64,000 nucleotides of DNA from Escherichia coli (GTDB taxonomy: Bacteria > Pseudomonadota > Gammaproteobacteria > Enterobacterales > Enterobacteriaceae), in the NCBI RefSeq assembly GCF_965641715.1, contig NZ_OZ282453.1; one strand, 5' to 3'. Positions 2,382 to 52,227 of the stretch are shown piece by piece. Below the pieces are notes generated by a model that saw nothing but the letters and a program-made list of their open reading frames with translations, did not search any database and was not told the origin of the DNA. Position numbers and translations under genes: made by a program. Within the stretch, counting starts at the first letter, position 1; the number at the start of each line of letters is the position of its first letter.

Positions 2382-3752
2382 ATGGCTCGTTCTTTTAAAG
2401 TCTTATCGCCAACGGCAATCCTCGGGTATGGATTCCCGGAAGAGAGCTTCCGCAAAGCGATGGCAGAATCGCCCGATCTGATCGCCGTTGATGCAGGCTC
2501 TTCCGATCCAGGCCCCCACTACCTCGGGGCAGGCAAACCGTTTACCGATCGCGCAGGGGTCAAGCGCGATCTGCGCTATATGATCACCGCAGGCGTGCAA
2601 AATAATATACCGGTGGTGATCGGAACGGCCGGCGGTTCTGGTGCCGCACCACACCTGGAGTGGTGCCGAGAAATAATTCATGAGATTGCCCAGGAAGAGC
2701 ACCTCTCGTTCTCGATGGCGTTGATCCCGGCAGACGTTGACAAAGCCATCGTCCACCAGGCGCTGGATAACGGCAAAATCACGGCGCTGGAGTTTGTCCC
2801 GCCGTTAACCCACGACGCGATTGACGAAAGTACGTATATCGTCGCGCAAATGGGCATCGAACCCTTCCAGCGGGCGCTGAAAGAAGGCGCGCAAGTGGTG
2901 CTGGGCGGGCGCGCTTACGACCCGGCCTGCTTTGCTGCGCTCCCGATCATGCAAGGCTTTGATGAAGGTCTGGCGCTGCATTGTGGGAAAATCCTTGAGT
3001 GCGCAGCAATCGCCGCAACGCCCGGCTCAGGCTCTGACTGTGCGATGGGCATCATTGATGACAACGGCTTTACGCTGAAGACATTTAATCCGAAGCGTAA
3101 ATTTACCGAAACGTCAGCAGCTGCACACACACTGTATGAGAAATCCGATCCCTACTTCCTGCCAGGACCTGGCGGCGTGTTGAACCTGAAAGGCTGCACA
3201 TTTAAAGCAGTCAATGACGGCGAAGTCTACGTCAGCGGTTCTAAGCATGAAGAAACGCCGTATGCCCTGAAACTGGAAGGTGCACGACGGGTGGGCTTCC
3301 GCTGTCTGACCATCGCCGGAACGCGCGACCCGATTATGATCGCCGGGATCGATAAAATCATCGATGAAGTCAAAACCAGCGTTTCGCGTAACCTGTCGCT
3401 CGACGATGACAGCATTCGCATCAATTTCCACCTGTACGGCAAAAACGGGGTGATGGGAGACCATGAACCGATGCAAACTGCCGGGCATGAGCTGGGGATT
3501 GTCCTTGATGTAGTTGCACCGACCCAGGAAATTGCCAACAGCGTTTGCTCGCTGGTGCGCTCTACCATGCTGCACTACGGCTATGAAAACCGCATCGCTA
3601 CCGCAGGTAATCTGGCGTTCCCGTTCTCCCCTTCTGATATCCAGGGCGGGCCGGTATACGAATTTTCCATATATCACCTGATTGAAGCCAACGACGCTCT
3701 GCGTTTTGATTTCCATATTGAACAGGTGACGCCAGAAGGAGTTCAGGCATGA
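2382..3752 (+). CDS. DUF1446 (AtuA-like) family protein, function unknown
   Basis: 456 aa ORF 3 nt after methylaspartase; family assignment from memory of AtuA-like proteins and needs an HMM check. Confidence 0.65.
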   Translation: MARSFKVLSPTAILGYGFPEESFRKAMAESPDLIAVDAGSSDPGPHYLGAGKPFTDRAGVKRDLRYMITAGVQNNIPVVIGTAGGSGAAPHLEWCREIIHEIAQEEHLSFSMALIPADVDKAIVHQALDNGKITALEFVPPLTHDAIDESTYIVAQMGIEPFQRALKEGAQVVLGGRAYDPACFAALPIMQGFDEGLALHCGKILECAAIAATPGSGSDCAMGIIDDNGFTLKTFNPKRKFTETSAAAHTLYEKSDPYFLPGPGGVLNLKGCTFKAVNDGEVYVSGSKHEETPYALKLEGARRVGFRCLTIAGTRDPIMIAGIDKIIDEVKTSVSRNLSLDDDSIRINFHLYGKNGVMGDHEPMQTAGHELGIVLDVVAPTQEIANSVCSLVRSTMLHYGYENRIATAGNLAFPFSPSDIQGGPVYEFSIYHLIEANDALRFDFHIEQVTPEGVQA

Positions 3753-4066
3753 AACAGTCAATTGTCTCACTGGCGCAAGTCATTCGTTCGAAAAATGCCG
3801 GACCTTACGAACTGGTTTTAGATATTTTATTTAAAACGAAAGAAAACTATGAGCGAGTTAAATCATCAGGGCAATTAACCCCAGAACTGATTGCGCGCTT
3901 ATATCATGTTGAACCAGACTTTATTCATCGTATTGTCTGGTTTGATCCTTCTAACGCAGTAAAAATCGTCATGCCACGAGATATTATCTCCGGGAATGTA
4001 GGTGACAATGATGTCTATGGTGCACAGCAACATGCACCTTTATTAAATATGAGTTTCGATTTGTAA
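3749..4066 (+). CDS. small DUF4387-like protein, usual partner of DUF1446
   Basis: 105 aa ORF whose start overlaps the upstream stop by 4 nt (ATGA), implying translational coupling. Confidence 0.55.
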   Translation: MKQSIVSLAQVIRSKNAGPYELVLDILFKTKENYERVKSSGQLTPELIARLYHVEPDFIHRIVWFDPSNAVKIVMPRDIISGNVGDNDVYGAQQHAPLLNMSFDL

Positions 4067-4149
4067 TAATCCGAATACTTTTAGCCAACTGACATCCCGT
4101 CACTTATTGCAGTTCAACACTTCAGCTATTTGTAAGGTTGTAATAGCAG

Positions 4150-4181
4150 GTAGATGCCTGAATCTCTATTCAGGCATCTAC
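4150..4181 (+). terminator. perfect 14-bp stem hairpin (gtagatgcctgaat-ctct-attcaggcatctac), attenuator or operator candidate
   Basis: Inverted repeat read directly in the sequence between the DUF4387 gene and the transporter gene; downstream tract is only moderately T-rich. Confidence 0.45.
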
Positions 4182-4205
4182 TTCTCCTGATTCTGATTTA
4201 TCGCC

Positions 4206-5507
4206 GTGCACCTGATGGAGGAAAAAATGAAGAAAATAAGTTTAACCACGATGATTCTTTTGGCGCTGGTACTTGGAATGATTATCGGCGTAGTGCTTAA
4301 TAACACTGTTTCACCGGAAACAGCAAAACTCTATGCGCAAGAAATATCGATATTCACGACGATTTTCTTACGACTGATAAAAATGATTATCGCTCCGTTA
4401 GTGGTCTCTACCCTGGTGGTAGGTATTGCTAAAATGGGCGATGCCAAAGCCCTTGGTCGTATTTTTTCTAAAACACTCTTTTTATTTATTTGCGCCTCAT
4501 TGCTGTCAATTGCCTTAGGCTTGATAACGGTAAATTTCTTCATGCCAGGCACAGGAATTAATTTTGTTGCACACGGTGCCGAAACCACAGGAGTGGTCGC
4601 GTCAGAACCCTTTACGCTAAAAGTATTTATTTCGCATGCTTTCCCCACCAGCATTGTCGATGCCATGGCGCACAATGAAATTTTGCAAATCGTGGTGTTC
4701 TCAATTTTCCTCGGCTGTAGCCTGACGGCGATTGGAGAGAAAGGCAGCGCCATCGTTCACGCCTTAGATTCGCTGGCACATGCCATGTTAAAGCTCACTG
4801 GCTACGTCATGCTCTTCGCTCCCCTGACCGTATTCGCTGCTATTTCAGCATTGATTGCTGAACGAGGACTGGCAGTTATGGTGAGCGCCGGGATCTTTAT
4901 GGGTGAATTTTATTTCACCATGTTATTACTTTGGGTGCTGCTTATCGGTCTGGCCATCGTTTATGTCGGCCCCTGCATCAGACGCCTGACCCGCGCCCTT
5001 TCGGAACCCGCCCTGCTGGCATTTACCACATCCAGTTCTGAAGCGGCTTTTCCGGGAACGCTTGAAAAACTGGAGCAATTTGGCGTTTCCCCCAAAATTG
5101 CCAGCTTTGTCTTACCCATTGGCTACTCATTTAATCTCGTTGGATCAATGGCCTACTGCTCCTTCGCCACAGTTTTCATCGCCCAGGCCTGCAATATCCA
5201 TTTATCCATCGGTGAGCAAATCACCATGCTGTTGATCCTGATGTTGACCTCGAAAGGAATGGCTGGCGTACCACGCGCCTCAATGGTGGTTATCGCCGCC
5301 ACGCTCAACCAGTTCAATATTCCGGAAGCGGGGCTGATCTTGCTGATGGGCGTTGATCCGTTCCTTGATATGGGGCGTTCCGCGACAAACGTCATGAGCA
5401 ACGCAATGGGCGCTGCGATGGTGAGTCGGTGGGAAGGCGAACATTTCGGCGAGGGCTGTCGGGGTAAAGCATTAAAACCCAATGAATCGAACGTTGCTCT
5501 GCCCTGA
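4206..5507 (+). CDS. dicarboxylate/amino acid:cation symporter (DAACS, GltP/DctA-like)
   Basis: 433 aa polytopic membrane protein with DAACS-like motifs (…FIAQ…, …GVPRAS…); start may be the internal ATG at 4227 (MKKISLT…). Confidence 0.8.
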   Translation: MHLMEEKMKKISLTTMILLALVLGMIIGVVLNNTVSPETAKLYAQEISIFTTIFLRLIKMIIAPLVVSTLVVGIAKMGDAKALGRIFSKTLFLFICASLLSIALGLITVNFFMPGTGINFVAHGAETTGVVASEPFTLKVFISHAFPTSIVDAMAHNEILQIVVFSIFLGCSLTAIGEKGSAIVHALDSLAHAMLKLTGYVMLFAPLTVFAAISALIAERGLAVMVSAGIFMGEFYFTMLLLWVLLIGLAIVYVGPCIRRLTRALSEPALLAFTTSSSEAAFPGTLEKLEQFGVSPKIASFVLPIGYSFNLVGSMAYCSFATVFIAQACNIHLSIGEQITMLLILMLTSKGMAGVPRASMVVIAATLNQFNIPEAGLILLMGVDPFLDMGRSATNVMSNAMGAAMVSRWEGEHFGEGCRGKALKPNESNVALP

Positions 5508-5614
5508 GGGGGATCTTAAGCAATCAGAAGCCAATGACTACGCATTTTTATAAGCCGGATCAAGAAGTTAGACGGCAATTAAGTAACACTAACGTTTAAG
5601 GTGAAAAGTGAAAT

Positions 5615-7267
5615 ATGTCCAAACCATTTATCTGGCAAGAACCGTTTCTACAAAATAAAGACGGTACAGAATATACATTAATTAGCGATCAACATATTAC
5701 AGTAACGGAATTAGACGGCGAAGAAGTGATAAAAATCGCTCCTGAAGCATTAACGCTGCTTGCCCGGCAGGCATTTTATGAAGCCTCTTTTTTCTTACGT
5801 TCCGCTCATTTGCAACAGGTCGCCAGCATTCTTAACGATCCGCAGGCCAGCAGTAATGATAAATACGTTGCGTTGCAGTTATTACGTAATGCTGAAGTCT
5901 CAGCAAAAGGGGTATTACCCAACTGTCAGGATACCGGCACCGCAACTATTATTGCCAGTAAAGGGCAACAGATATGGACCGGAGGTAACGACGCCGAAGC
6001 CTTAAGCAAAGGCATTTACACCACTTTTCAGGAAAATAATCTGCGCTTTTCACAAAATGCGCCGCTGGATATGTATACCGAAGTCAATACGCAAACCAAT
6101 CTCCCGGCGCAGATTGATATCTGCGCCGTCGCTGGTGATGAGTACCATTTCCTCTGTGTTAATAAAGGAGGCGGCTCTGCCAATAAAGCCGCGCTTTATC
6201 AGGAAACCAAATCCTTATTGCAACCAGAAAAACTGACCGCATTTTTAATCGAAAAAATGAAATCGCTGGGCACCGCTGCCTGCCCGCCTTACCACATCGC
6301 CTTTGTCGTCGGAGGGCTTTCAGCCGATCAAACCTTAAAAATTGCCAAGCTGGCCTCAACGAAATATTACGACAATTTGCCCACCAGCGGAAACGAGCAG
6401 GGACAAGCATTCCGTGATATTGAGCTGGAAAAAGCGTTGCTCGAGGCCAGTCAGCAATTTGGTATTGGTGCACAATTTGGGGGGAAATATTTCGCTCATG
6501 ATATTCGCGTCATTCGTCTGCCGCGTCACGGTGGCTCTTGCCCGATAGCTATGGCGCTCTCCTGTTCTGCCGATCGCAATATCAAAGCAAAAATTAACAA
6601 ACACGGTATCTGGCTGGAAAAACTCGAACACAATCCGGGGCAATATATTCCAGCCTCACTGCGGGAAGAAAATCACGCGCAACATGTACAACTGGATCTA
6701 AACCGTCCGTTGCGTGACGTGATGCTGGATCTCGCCAGATTACCGGTAGGCACCCGCGTGTCGTTAAGTGGTCCCATCGTAGTGGCGCGCGATATCGCCC
6801 ACGCCAAAATAAAAGCGCGGCTGGATAGCGGTGAATCGATGCCGGAGTACCTGAAGCATCATATTGTCTATTACGCTGGCCCGGCGAAAACACCGGAGAA
6901 CATGGCCTGCGGTTCACTGGGTCCAACTACGGGCGGTCGAATGGACGGTTATGTCGATACCTTCCAGGCGGCCGGCGGCAGTCTGGTGATGTTATCGAAA
7001 GGGAACCGCAGCCAGCAGGTCACCGATGCTTGTCACAAACATGGCGGCTTCAATCTGGGAAGTATTGGCGGTGCAGCTGCGTTACTGGCGCAAGAATATG
7101 TCAAAAGTCTGCGTTGCCTGGAATACCCGGAGCTGGGTATGGAAGCGGTGTGGATGATGGAAGTGGAAAATCTGCCCGCATTCATCCTGGTAGATGATAA
7201 AGGCAATAATTTCTTTAGTCTGTTTGAGCAGCAACACCGCTGCGCCAGTTGCCCTGCGGGACATTAA
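5615..7267 (+). CDS. fumD: class I (Fe-S) fumarate hydratase paralog, probable mesaconase/fumarase
   Basis: 550 aa, collinear with and highly similar to E. coli FumA as recalled; context with glutamate mutase and methylaspartase suggests mesaconate hydration. The symbol fumD is from memory of the O157:H7 literature. Confidence 0.8.
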
Positions 7268-7276
7268 GGAAAATGA

Positions 7277-7879
7277 ATGGAAGCGCGAATTTCAACTGAA
7301 CGGCATGTGCAGCGCCAACAGAAATTGAAGGAACAGGTCGATACGCGCGTCGCAGCGGCGATAGAGAAAAAAGGGATCTTGATTGTTTTCACCGGCAACG
7401 GCAAAGGGAAATCCACTGCCGCGTTTGGTACTGTGACGCGCGCGGTGGGTCATGGCAAAACGGTGGGGGTTGCGCAGTACATCAAGGGGCAATGGGACAA
7501 CGGCGAATACAACCTTCTCCAGCCGCTGGGGGTTGAGTTTCATATTATGGGAACCGGTTTTACCTGGGAGACACAGAACCGGCAAGCGGATATCGACGCG
7601 GCGAAAGAGGTCTGGTCGGAAAGCAAACGGATGCTGGCTGACAAGCGTTACGACTTAGTGGTGCTTGATGAGCTGACCTATATGCTGGCTTACCATTATC
7701 TGGATACCGAAGAAGTGATCGCTTCTCTGCAAAACCGCCCGGCACAACAAAGTGTCATTGTCACCGGACGCGGTTGCCACAGTCAGATATTAAAAATGGC
7801 AGATACGGTCAGCGAAATCCGCCCCGTCAAACATGCTTTTGATAACGGCATTCAGGCCCAGCCGGGTATCGACTGGTAA
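7277..7879 (+). CDS. ATP:cob(I)alamin adenosyltransferase (BtuR/CobA/CobO family)
   Basis: 200 aa with a P-loop (GNGKGKSTAAFG) typical of BtuR-type adenosyltransferases; fits the AdoCbl requirement of glutamate mutase. Confidence 0.8.
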   Translation: MEARISTERHVQRQQKLKEQVDTRVAAAIEKKGILIVFTGNGKGKSTAAFGTVTRAVGHGKTVGVAQYIKGQWDNGEYNLLQPLGVEFHIMGTGFTWETQNRQADIDAAKEVWSESKRMLADKRYDLVVLDELTYMLAYHYLDTEEVIASLQNRPAQQSVIVTGRGCHSQILKMADTVSEIRPVKHAFDNGIQAQPGIDW

Positions 7880-7882
7880 TAA

Positions 7883-7914
7883 CTGCGCCTGGCATCCCGC
7901 CAGGCGCAGGTTTT
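7883..7914. terminator. bidirectional intrinsic terminator between convergent genes
   Basis: 11-bp perfect stem (ctgcgcctggc / gccaggcgcag) followed by TTTT, sitting between the adenosyltransferase stop and the LysR stop. Confidence 0.55.
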
Positions 7915-49237: not shown

Positions 49238-49245
49238 TGTGATGC

Positions 49246-49272
49246 GGCGTAGACTCATGTCTACGCCGTATT
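49246..49272 (+). terminator. fldA intrinsic terminator
   Basis: ggcgtagac-tcat-gtctacgcc hairpin followed by T-rich sequence. Confidence 0.6.
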
Positions 49273-49972: not shown

Positions 49973-49990
49973 GCCAGTCTGAACGAGAAA

Positions 49991-50018
49991 AGCCAACCTG
50001 CGGGTTGGCTTTTTTATG
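49991..50018 (+). terminator. fur intrinsic terminator
   Basis: agccaacc-tgcg-ggttggct hairpin followed by TTTTTT. Confidence 0.7.
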
Positions 50019-52150: not shown

Positions 52151-52227
52151 ATGGATAAATTGCGAAGCGGAATTAATTCGCGAAGAAAAGCAGAAAAAAC
52201 GCCGCTGAACGCGGCGTTTTGGATTGT

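Follow-up and report, generated by a model that had tools for sequence, protein, structure and literature searches.

A covarying hairpin between enzyme and transporter genes of the Escherichia coli methylaspartate island is a stem of a larger conserved intercistronic RNA

The methylaspartate (glutamate fermentation) island of Escherichia coli carries a perfect palindrome in the spacer between the gene of a DUF4387 protein and that of a GltP-like transporter. The question raised by this locus is whether the palindrome acts as a terminator of transcription, as a binding site in the DNA or as a structure in the RNA. The DNA analysed is a stretch of 64,000 nucleotides from contig NZ_OZ282453.1 (hereafter the window), in which the palindrome occupies positions 4150-4181. 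The island is carried by 1124 of the 5426 complete E. coli genomes (about one fifth, including most O157:H7 strains) and by many opportunistic Enterobacteriaceae. An original prediction, made from the nucleotide sequence of the window, read the palindrome as an atypical terminator or attenuator, as an RNA processing site setting the ratio of enzymes to transporter, or as the target of a dimeric regulator such as the LysR-type protein of the island. Comparison of orthologous spacers shows that the hairpin is under selection as a structure in the sense RNA and forms a stem of a larger conserved intercistronic RNA.

The two arms of the hairpin (4150-4163, GTAGATGCCTGAAT, and 4168-4181, ATTCAGGCATCTAC) form a perfect 14-bp inverted repeat enclosing the 4-nt loop CTCT (4164-4167). 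This geometry, read directly from the sequence, agrees with the original prediction, as does the placement of the hairpin 45 nt ahead of the transporter ATG at 4227; the DUF4387 stop codon lies 83 nt before the hairpin. In the + strand RNA the stem (4148-4183) reaches 16 pairs through the A-U and G.U pairs that A4148/G4149 form with T4182/T4183, and has a computed free energy of -23.1 kcal/mol. The folding energy of the hairpin in a context of 111 nt, a check proposed together with the original prediction, is -35.7 kcal/mol (z score of -3.4) and was equalled by none of 200 dinucleotide shuffles. An exhaustive scan identified the hairpin as the longest perfect one of the window, in which one perfect hairpin with a stem of at least 14 bp is observed while 200 first-order Markov simulations of the window yield a mean of 0.005. 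Each of 1123 E. coli genomes has a single locus matching a 76-nt query centred on the hairpin; the apparent "second place" in many records arises because the palindrome also matches its own opposite strand.

Orthologous loci were fetched by alignment of the DUF4387 protein, with one genome retained per species (80 loci). The DUF4387 gene is followed by the same transporter gene after 161-170 nt in Citrobacter, Klebsiella, Raoultella, Enterobacter, Lelliottia, Pluralibacter, Buttiauxella and Salmonella enterica subsp. arizonae/diarizonae. Most of these spacers, from some 30 species of Enterobacteriaceae, contain a hairpin of 13-17 bp located 81-91 nt past the stop codon and 39-52 nt before the ATG. 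The orthologous stems differ in sequence (e.g., GGCGUGCGCCUGAGCU-8 nt-GGCUCAGGCGCACGCC) and have energies of -20 to -38 kcal/mol. For 31 spacers an alignment (A3) was built with MAFFT, and its consensus fold was calculated with RNAalifold. As it used sequence alone, the alignment is not fitted to the structure. The consensus fold, about 165 nt long, comprises three well-supported helices of the + strand: an upstream hairpin P1 (columns 27-35/55-63), P2 (GGUUGGU/ACCARCC, columns 75-81/151-157), which encloses P3, and P3 itself (columns 90-104/116-130), which is the hairpin of the window. The original prediction had overlooked this larger structured spacer, in which the hairpin is a single stem.

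Standard pairs occupy 94.5% of the cells in the paired columns; shifting the 3' partner by 1-3 columns lowers this share to 30-42%. Changes on both sides of the pair are found at 19 of the 31 pair positions, among them 13 of 15 in P3 and 6 of 9 in P1, and none of 500 column shuffles matched the observed values of pairing and double changes. A further spacer, from Salmonella Macclesfield, has a U-to-C change in P2 that turns a U.G pair into C-G. Among the cells that depart from Watson-Crick pairing, 133 are G.U, spread across 26 of the 31 pair positions, and 14 are A.C. Since both mismatches arise by transitions, the G.U excess places the selection for pairing in the + strand RNA, and not in duplex DNA or in an antisense transcript. 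The spacer thus displays compensatory maintenance of base pairs across species on the transcribed strand, which is how a conserved structured cis-acting RNA is generically defined.

Variation within Escherichia has the same character. The perfect-stem 76-nt allele of the window is present in 609 of 1124 records (54% of the carriers). An A>G substitution in the 3' arm is the sole stem change in 315 (28%) and converts U-A to U.G in the + strand RNA while giving C.A on the opposite strand. A mismatch allele (A>T) accounts for 30 records (2.7%), and in another E. coli allele the loop CUCU becomes UUUU besides the wobble, with no further change. The E. albertii stem (GGUGGAUGCCUGA...UCAGGCAUCCAC) differs from that of E. 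coli by a compensatory replacement of A-U by G-C and has a larger loop. One natural "hairpin-disrupted" mutant was encountered: E. coli strain 100416 (NZ_CM128593.1, 3426439-3427287) carries an IS1 within the 5' arm, where GGCAGCATCACC abuts CTGAATCTCT at about window position 4158. No DUF4387 side is present there within 400 nt, so that the operon of this strain is split or partly deleted.

The constraint on sequence was evaluated against the third codon positions of the two flanking genes in the same genomes, whose mean pairwise identities are 0.66 and 0.63. The P3 loop (0.61) and the tract between the tail and P2 (columns 141-150; 0.48) drift freely. The stem sequences of P1 (0.70) and P3 (0.73) drift slightly slower than third positions and retain pairing. 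Clear sequence constraint acts on the 5' CA-rich block (0.83), the ACCCUACAC tail that follows P3 (0.84), the P1/P2 junction (UUAUUCAUGC; 0.86), the Shine-Dalgarno (SD) region (0.86), the P2 stem (0.89) and the P2/P3 junction (CACAAC; 0.89). The P3 stem being near the third-position level and its loop at that level, selection bears on pairing and stability rather than on sequence. P3 is therefore selected as a stable helix of arbitrary sequence and loop, set within a leader that is otherwise selected for its sequence. The conserved blocks stand at 0.84-0.91 in spacers of the Citrobacter/Klebsiella/Salmonella type, of which GCGGUUGG is a stretch from the Citrobacter type, and are mostly lost in E. 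coli.

These observations leave very little room for the palindrome as a DNA operator bound by a dimeric regulator such as the LysR-type protein. The idea drew on the perfect 32-bp palindrome of E. coli and on the LysR-family gene within the island. However, it is the complementarity of the half-sites that is conserved and not their sequence, the stem drifting at close to the third-position rate. The 133:14 ratio of G.U to A.C is the mark of a single-stranded sense RNA and is incompatible with a symmetric operator in duplex DNA, and the common E. coli A>G allele breaks the DNA palindrome yet leaves a U.G pair in the RNA. The T-N11-A layout of LysR boxes is absent. A sigma-70 consensus scan of the spacer, to which weak or activator-dependent promoters would be invisible, found no match on the + strand in either E. 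coli or C. braakii; an internal sigma-70 promoter of the spacer was rejected on this ground, and an operator close to the hairpin would have no promoter-like site beside it. An operator shared with the glmS promoter was likewise rejected, as the conserved blocks are found there no more often than by chance; the one complementary 10-mer seen in E. coli lies outside any palindrome. For annotation purposes, a perfect palindrome with a T-poor tail is thus not by default an operator or a terminator.

The terminator hypothesis, in which a weak intrinsic (Rho-independent) terminator or attenuator would pass a fraction of the transcripts into the transporter genes, is also improbable. The E. coli structure has the stem and loop of such signals: 14-16 bp, a 4-nt loop and -23 kcal/mol, the stem being at or above the usual ~5-14 bp and the loop within the usual 3-8 nt. 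It is stable, G+C-containing and intercistronic, past a stop codon. What it lacks is the U-tract. The tail 3' of the hairpin (CTTCTCCT) is indeed T-poor, as originally noted. Its segment CUUCUCCU has 4 U in 8, and the terminator scan, which needs at least 5 T in 8, made no call. The tail of 30 orthologous spacers reads ACCCUACAC or GCCCUACAC and contains one U, so that the conserved element does not include a U-tract; stems of 14-17 bp moreover exceed the typical terminator length. Intrinsic termination is accordingly not the conserved function of the hairpin, although a weak and partial termination might occur in E. coli itself. In Yersinia, Hafnia and Budvicia a terminator-like hairpin with a U-run does occupy the same junction, and a down-tuned read-through at this point of the operon may therefore recur.

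The remaining DNA-level explanation, a relic of a mobile or repetitive palindromic element (a repetitive extragenic palindrome (REP) or bacterial interspersed mosaic element, or the end of a miniature inverted-repeat transposable element (MITE)) or a palindrome arisen by chance and devoid of function, is hardly credible. The E. coli stem begins with GTAG and ends with CTAC, and orthologues have CTAC 3-4 nt past the stem, a likeness to the REP layout, in which such a tetranucleotide flanks an imperfect palindrome and serves recognition by RAYT; strain 100416 moreover has an IS1 inserted in the hairpin. The E. albertii stem base is GTGG...CCAC instead of the REP-like GTAG...CTAC. The single copy per genome in 1123 genomes, the lack of further copies in about 170 loci, the orthologous position within conserved flanks and the compensatory evolution all oppose a relic, and the expectation of 0.005 opposes chance. 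In the window, no additional copy within 3 mismatches was found beyond chance, and the Citrobacter-type stem has no match in E. coli genomes. A dispersed repeat of the REP or MITE kind was rejected on the basis of the single copy in the E. coli carrier genomes, the lack of a near copy in the window and the absence of the Citrobacter-type stem from E. coli genomes.

A covariance model built from A3 recognised the full element in K. oxytoca with 154 bits and in a metagenomic contig of the same gene context with 187 bits. Escherichia sp. MOD1-EC7003 scored weakly (34 bits) and Pseudescherichia marginally (18-23 bits). No second copy was found in any of the approximately 170 loci searched with the model, where the element occurs only upstream of this transporter. 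A metagenome scan with the most invariant block returned a single true match, in the same gene context, the other 79 of the 80 loci screened being chance matches. No credible match was obtained in Rfam 15: the best model for the E. coli spacer was rli41 (16 bits for a threshold of 55) and for the Citrobacter spacer SAM-SAH (10.8 bits for a threshold of 40). A literature search by the locus tags ECs0758/ECs0759 and the Z-numbers found no relevant paper. Intercistronic structured RNAs are a known kind; this particular element is not in Rfam and no description of it was found. With 31 sequences, 19 covarying pairs and a strong strand asymmetry, it is a well-supported candidate for the enterobacterial structured RNAs outside Rfam. 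Two further candidates were discarded in the spacer. A small open reading frame (ORF) starting at the conserved ATG of UUCAUGCGG would use three different frames interrupted by stops, and its start codon is missing from E. coli, Pluralibacter and C. sedlakii. Sequestration of the transporter start codon by UUCAUG/CAUGAA (P0) appears in the consensus fold; this pairing is invariant, and partition-function accessibility gave no consistent occlusion.

What the structure does for the operon can be stated with less assurance. Stable intercistronic stem-loops set differential stability of segments of the malEFG (REP), pap and puf messenger RNAs (mRNAs). We tentatively favour a comparable role here: acting post-transcriptionally, the hairpin would govern stability or processing of the mRNA where the enzyme and transporter segments meet. 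Like intercistronic stability elements, it is a stable stem-loop in the spacer of an operon, whose genes are in this case probably co-transcribed. The high stability, the free sequence and loop, and the recurrence of unrelated hairpins at this junction (see below) all fit such a role. The processing site of the original prediction is favoured by the compensatory substitutions and by the preponderance of G.U over A.C, which reveal selection in the sense RNA; the effect that it assigned to the ratio of enzymes to transporter stays putative. The polycistronic methylaspartate mRNA would carry P3 within the spacer between the enzyme cistrons and the transporter. Endonucleolytic cleavage in the single-stranded tail, or an RNase III cut in the stem, would leave a stem able to shield the upstream enzyme cistrons from 3'-to-5' exonucleases. 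The transporter-fumD-cobO segment would gain a 5' end and a fate of its own, and the levels of transporter and enzymes could differ with no need for an additional promoter or terminator. A conserved RNA at this junction offers a testable handle on the balance between uptake and catabolism in the island.

The closest parallels are the stabilising intercistronic stem-loops of malE-malF (the E. coli REP), puf in Rhodobacter and papBA. They share with the present hairpin a very high stability, a location at the boundary of cistrons needed in different amounts, and selection that favours pairing and stability over any particular sequence or loop. The hairpin described here differs in being single-copy, without REP consensus, and, in most genera, embedded in a larger leader with conserved P2, junctions and ACCCUACAC. 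RNase III substrates (T7 sites of the R1.1 type, the adhE and rpsO-pnp leaders) also have long, nearly perfect double-stranded stems between cistrons. The Citrobacter type has a rod of about 22-24 bp, built of P2 (7 bp) and P3 (15-17 bp) with an asymmetric internal loop between them, that recalls the T7 sites with an internal loop; at 8/20 nt, however, its loop is far larger than that of T7. The E. coli stem of 16 bp falls below the ~20-22 bp usual for efficient cleavage, and cleavage here is putative. SroC, a small RNA (sRNA) derived from the gltI-gltJ spacer of the glutamate/aspartate transporter operon, is another spacer RNA in an operon linked to glutamate transport and provides a precedent for stable fragments, which are hypothetical in the present case. 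It has no sequence relationship with the element, which lacks the terminator-type 3' end with a U-tail for Hfq.

Several points weigh against a stability or processing role. For a classical site of RNase III, a stem of 16 bp is short. The conserved leader can exist without P3, as Pseudescherichia retains P1 and P2 with an unstructured A-rich stretch in place of P3. The identities of 0.84-0.91 in P2, in the junctions and in the ACCCUACAC tail are not explained by a generic barrier to decay and point instead to sequence-specific recognition. Finally, the activity of methylaspartate ammonia-lyase was undetectable under the conditions tried by Kronen and Berg (PMC4682846). The island may thus be poorly expressed in laboratory conditions, and standard datasets may miss the hairpin transcript altogether. 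The tables of RNase E-CLASH (cross-linking, ligation and sequencing of hybrids) contain nothing at the spacer and a single rRNA chimera in ECs0760.

The conserved unpaired blocks are better accounted for by a cis-regulatory sensor leader, riboswitch-like or binding a protein or an sRNA, that would control translation of the transporter or read-through into it, a reading we regard as possible but doubtful. The signal would be, for instance, glutamate, methylaspartate, mesaconate or B12 status, and P3 would serve as scaffold stem. Like the riboswitches and structured 5' leaders of Rfam, the element has covarying helices whose sequence drifts, conserved junction nucleotides, and a fixed place upstream of a transporter gene. 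P2, both junctions, the tail and the SD region clearly exceed the identity of third positions, the distance to the start codon is constant, the element is seen upstream of this transporter only, and UUCAUG could pair with CAUGAA at the start codon. The resemblance has limits. The P0 pairing, being invariant, has no support from covariation. No expression platform is evident and no terminator follows P3, and the predicted accessibility of the SD and AUG is not below that of shuffled controls, being even higher in E. coli and E. albertii. Perfect stems of 15-17 bp are atypical for aptamers. The distribution is restricted to the Enterobacteriaceae, with no relative in Rfam (best E values of 1.8 and 6.6), and the degenerate E. 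coli version, which has mostly lost the conserved blocks, fits such a sensor poorly. We consider it rather unlikely, in particular, that the spacer is an undescribed enterobacterial regulatory RNA (an orphan riboswitch or a leader responding to a protein or an sRNA) tuning the uptake of glutamate or a C5-dicarboxylate to the state of the B12-dependent methylaspartate pathway, the E. coli hairpin being a derived form into which the CUAC tail was absorbed.

The accessibility calculations also bear on a purely structural role, namely an insulator whose self-contained stem would keep the upstream mRNA off the transporter ribosome-binding site, so that initiation would be efficient and independent of context. 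The SD of E. coli and E. albertii is more accessible than that of 98-100% of leaders with shuffled upstream sequence, and selection bears on pairing and not on sequence. However, the effect is absent from most leaders of Citrobacter, Klebsiella and Salmonella, the calculation is a thermodynamic prediction with mononucleotide shuffles only, and the conserved unpaired blocks would be left unexplained. An insulator function appears improbable.

Returning to the hairpin as a putative stability or processing determinant, the E. coli spacer (4067-4226, + strand, 160 nt) is the local version of a structured RNA of ~160-170 nt present in ~30 species, as defined by alignment, consensus fold, covariance model and block conservation. 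A possible counterpart of P1, weak and uncertain, pairs AACTG (4087-4091) with CAGTT (4110-4114) around an 18-nt loop (4087-4114, + strand); 4 of the 9 consensus P1 pairs are broken. P3 follows (4148-4183, + strand), its 16 pairs including the perfect 14-bp core, with the support of folding, rarity, covariation among orthologues and the alleles of E. coli and E. albertii. The single-stranded tail from the hairpin to the SD (4184-4216, + strand; CTCCTGATTCTGATTTATCGCCGTGCACCTGAT) replaces the ACCCUACAC block of other genera and contains two CUGAUU repeats, which presumably resemble the RN|WUU preference of RNase E. The SD of the transporter gene, GGAGG, lies at 4217-4221 (+ strand) and is predicted to be more accessible than in 98% of the controls with shuffled upstream sequence; (A/C)GATGGAG is nearly invariant in the alignment. 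In the Sakai genome the locus lies around 846,773-846,932, window positions 4182-4192 corresponding approximately to 846,807-846,817.

E. coli thus retains all 15 consensus pairs of P3, in a longer, perfect helix closed by a tetraloop, together with the SD block, while P1 and P2 survive in part and ACCCUACAC is missing. Judged from these sequences, the E. coli version is a simplified, lengthened and derived form of the leader. The 3' arm appears to have taken in the CUAC of the tail, which now faces a GUAG in the 5' arm. An intermediate form is found in Escherichia sp. MOD1-EC7003, with a shorter P3 followed by CCCUACGCC and then by the E. coli-like UGAUUUAUCGC...GAUGGAGGAAAAAUG.

Several more distant lineages also have a hairpin after DUF4387. 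E. marmotae, E. whittamii and Escherichia sp. E1V33 have no transporter gene, and the DUF4387 gene is followed after 270-285 nt by fumD. Their spacers carry a strong hairpin about 35 nt past the DUF4387 stop codon, whose loop includes AUUUAUUCAUG. As this is the block that intervenes between P1 and P2 in the Citrobacter type, a deletion after which the stem re-formed is suggested for these three. Unrelated hairpins of 9-12 bp follow DUF4387 in E. fergusonii, Yokenella and Enterobacter sp. ENT03. After the DUF4387 gene of Yersinia, Hafnia, Budvicia and Enterobacteriaceae B14 stands a hairpin like that of a canonical terminator (CGGUGCA...UGCACCG), accompanied by a U-run; ahead of the start codon, CCCUACUUAUAAAUGGAAU is all that these bacteria retain. 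The transporter gene of these bacteria may have a promoter of its own. Strong hairpins in spacers that are not homologous, or where the transporter is missing, point to a recurrent solution after DUF4387. In the group of Yersinia, Hafnia, Budvicia and B14, CCCTACTTATAAATGGAATCATT stands directly ahead of the transporter ATG, and a AAAGGTACTGTTTTTCTT block is common to Hafnia, Budvicia and B14.

The genes of the island found in the window encode methylaspartate (glutamate) mutase E, methylaspartate ammonia-lyase, an AtuA-family protein, the DUF4387 protein, the SDF-family (GltP-like) symporter, a class I fumarase and a corrinoid adenosyltransferase. The operon order is glmS-glmL-glmE-mal-atuA-DUF4387, the spacer, then gltP-like transporter-fumD-cobO; in strain Sakai the island is located between sucCD and cydAB. 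The methylaspartate-pathway cluster was described by Kronen and Berg, its fumarase FumD (ECs0757) being a mesaconase (PMC4682846). The last cistron of the enzyme block is the DUF4387 gene (3749-4066, + strand; ECs_0759 orthologue), identified as an ORF matching Pfam PF14330 (E value of 2.6e-39) and RefSeq. The symporter gene (4227-5507, + strand; ECs_0758 orthologue), for a dicarboxylate/amino acid:cation symporter, matches PF00375 (SDF; E value of 2.7e-102) and has its RefSeq start at the ATG of 4227. A LysR-family gene faces the 3' end of the operon in convergent orientation, ~3.7 kb from the hairpin. The cistrons overlap or are 3-18 nt apart, with the exception of the 160-nt hairpin spacer and of a 107-nt spacer after the transporter gene. 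This tight spacing argues for one operon, and as the hairpin spacer has no promoter-like site, its genes are probably co-transcribed. Gene order and the lack of any promoter-like site or terminator are what suggests co-transcription across the spacer. No structure is seen in the second spacer beside the transporter gene (5508-5614; z score of +1.7), which points to a role specific to the junction that holds the hairpin.

The names of three of these genes in the Sakai reference annotation look wrong. In NC_002695.2 (846933-848617), ECs_0759 (DUF4387) is labelled "acyl-CoA synthetase" and ECs_0760 (AtuA family) "3-methylaspartate ammonia-lyase", and the mesaconase FumD (ECs_0757) carries the name fumA. 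The AtuA/DUF4387 pair (window 2382-4066) is kept within the glutamate-fermentation cluster across the Enterobacterales, and is also found as a pair in Betaproteobacteria, Spirochaetes and others. Salmonella Macclesfield has the whole island, structured spacer included, on a conjugative IncFIB megaplasmid of 416 kb (NZ_CP022118.1, 230210-244356), beside transposase genes and with the glutaminase gene glsA inserted between the transporter gene and fumD. A 7.3-kb contig binned as "Collinsella sp." (Actinomycetota; JAIJJM010000101.1) encodes a DUF4387 protein 100% and a transporter 99.8% identical to those of E. coli and has an identical spacer hairpin; it is almost certainly a mis-binned E. coli contig.

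Other perfect hairpins of the window were also recorded. One with an 11-bp stem (CTGCGCCTGGC-ATCCC-GCCAGGCGCAG, 7883-7909) fills the 33-nt gap between the convergent cobO (ending at 7879) and LysR-family (ending at 7913) genes and is probably a bidirectional terminator. The remaining ones with a stem of at least 10 bp lie at 6105-6128, inside the fumD coding region, and at 49245-49268, 49988-50013 and 52196-52220. Those at 49988 and 52196 are flanked by an A-run and a T-run, as is typical of bidirectional terminators.

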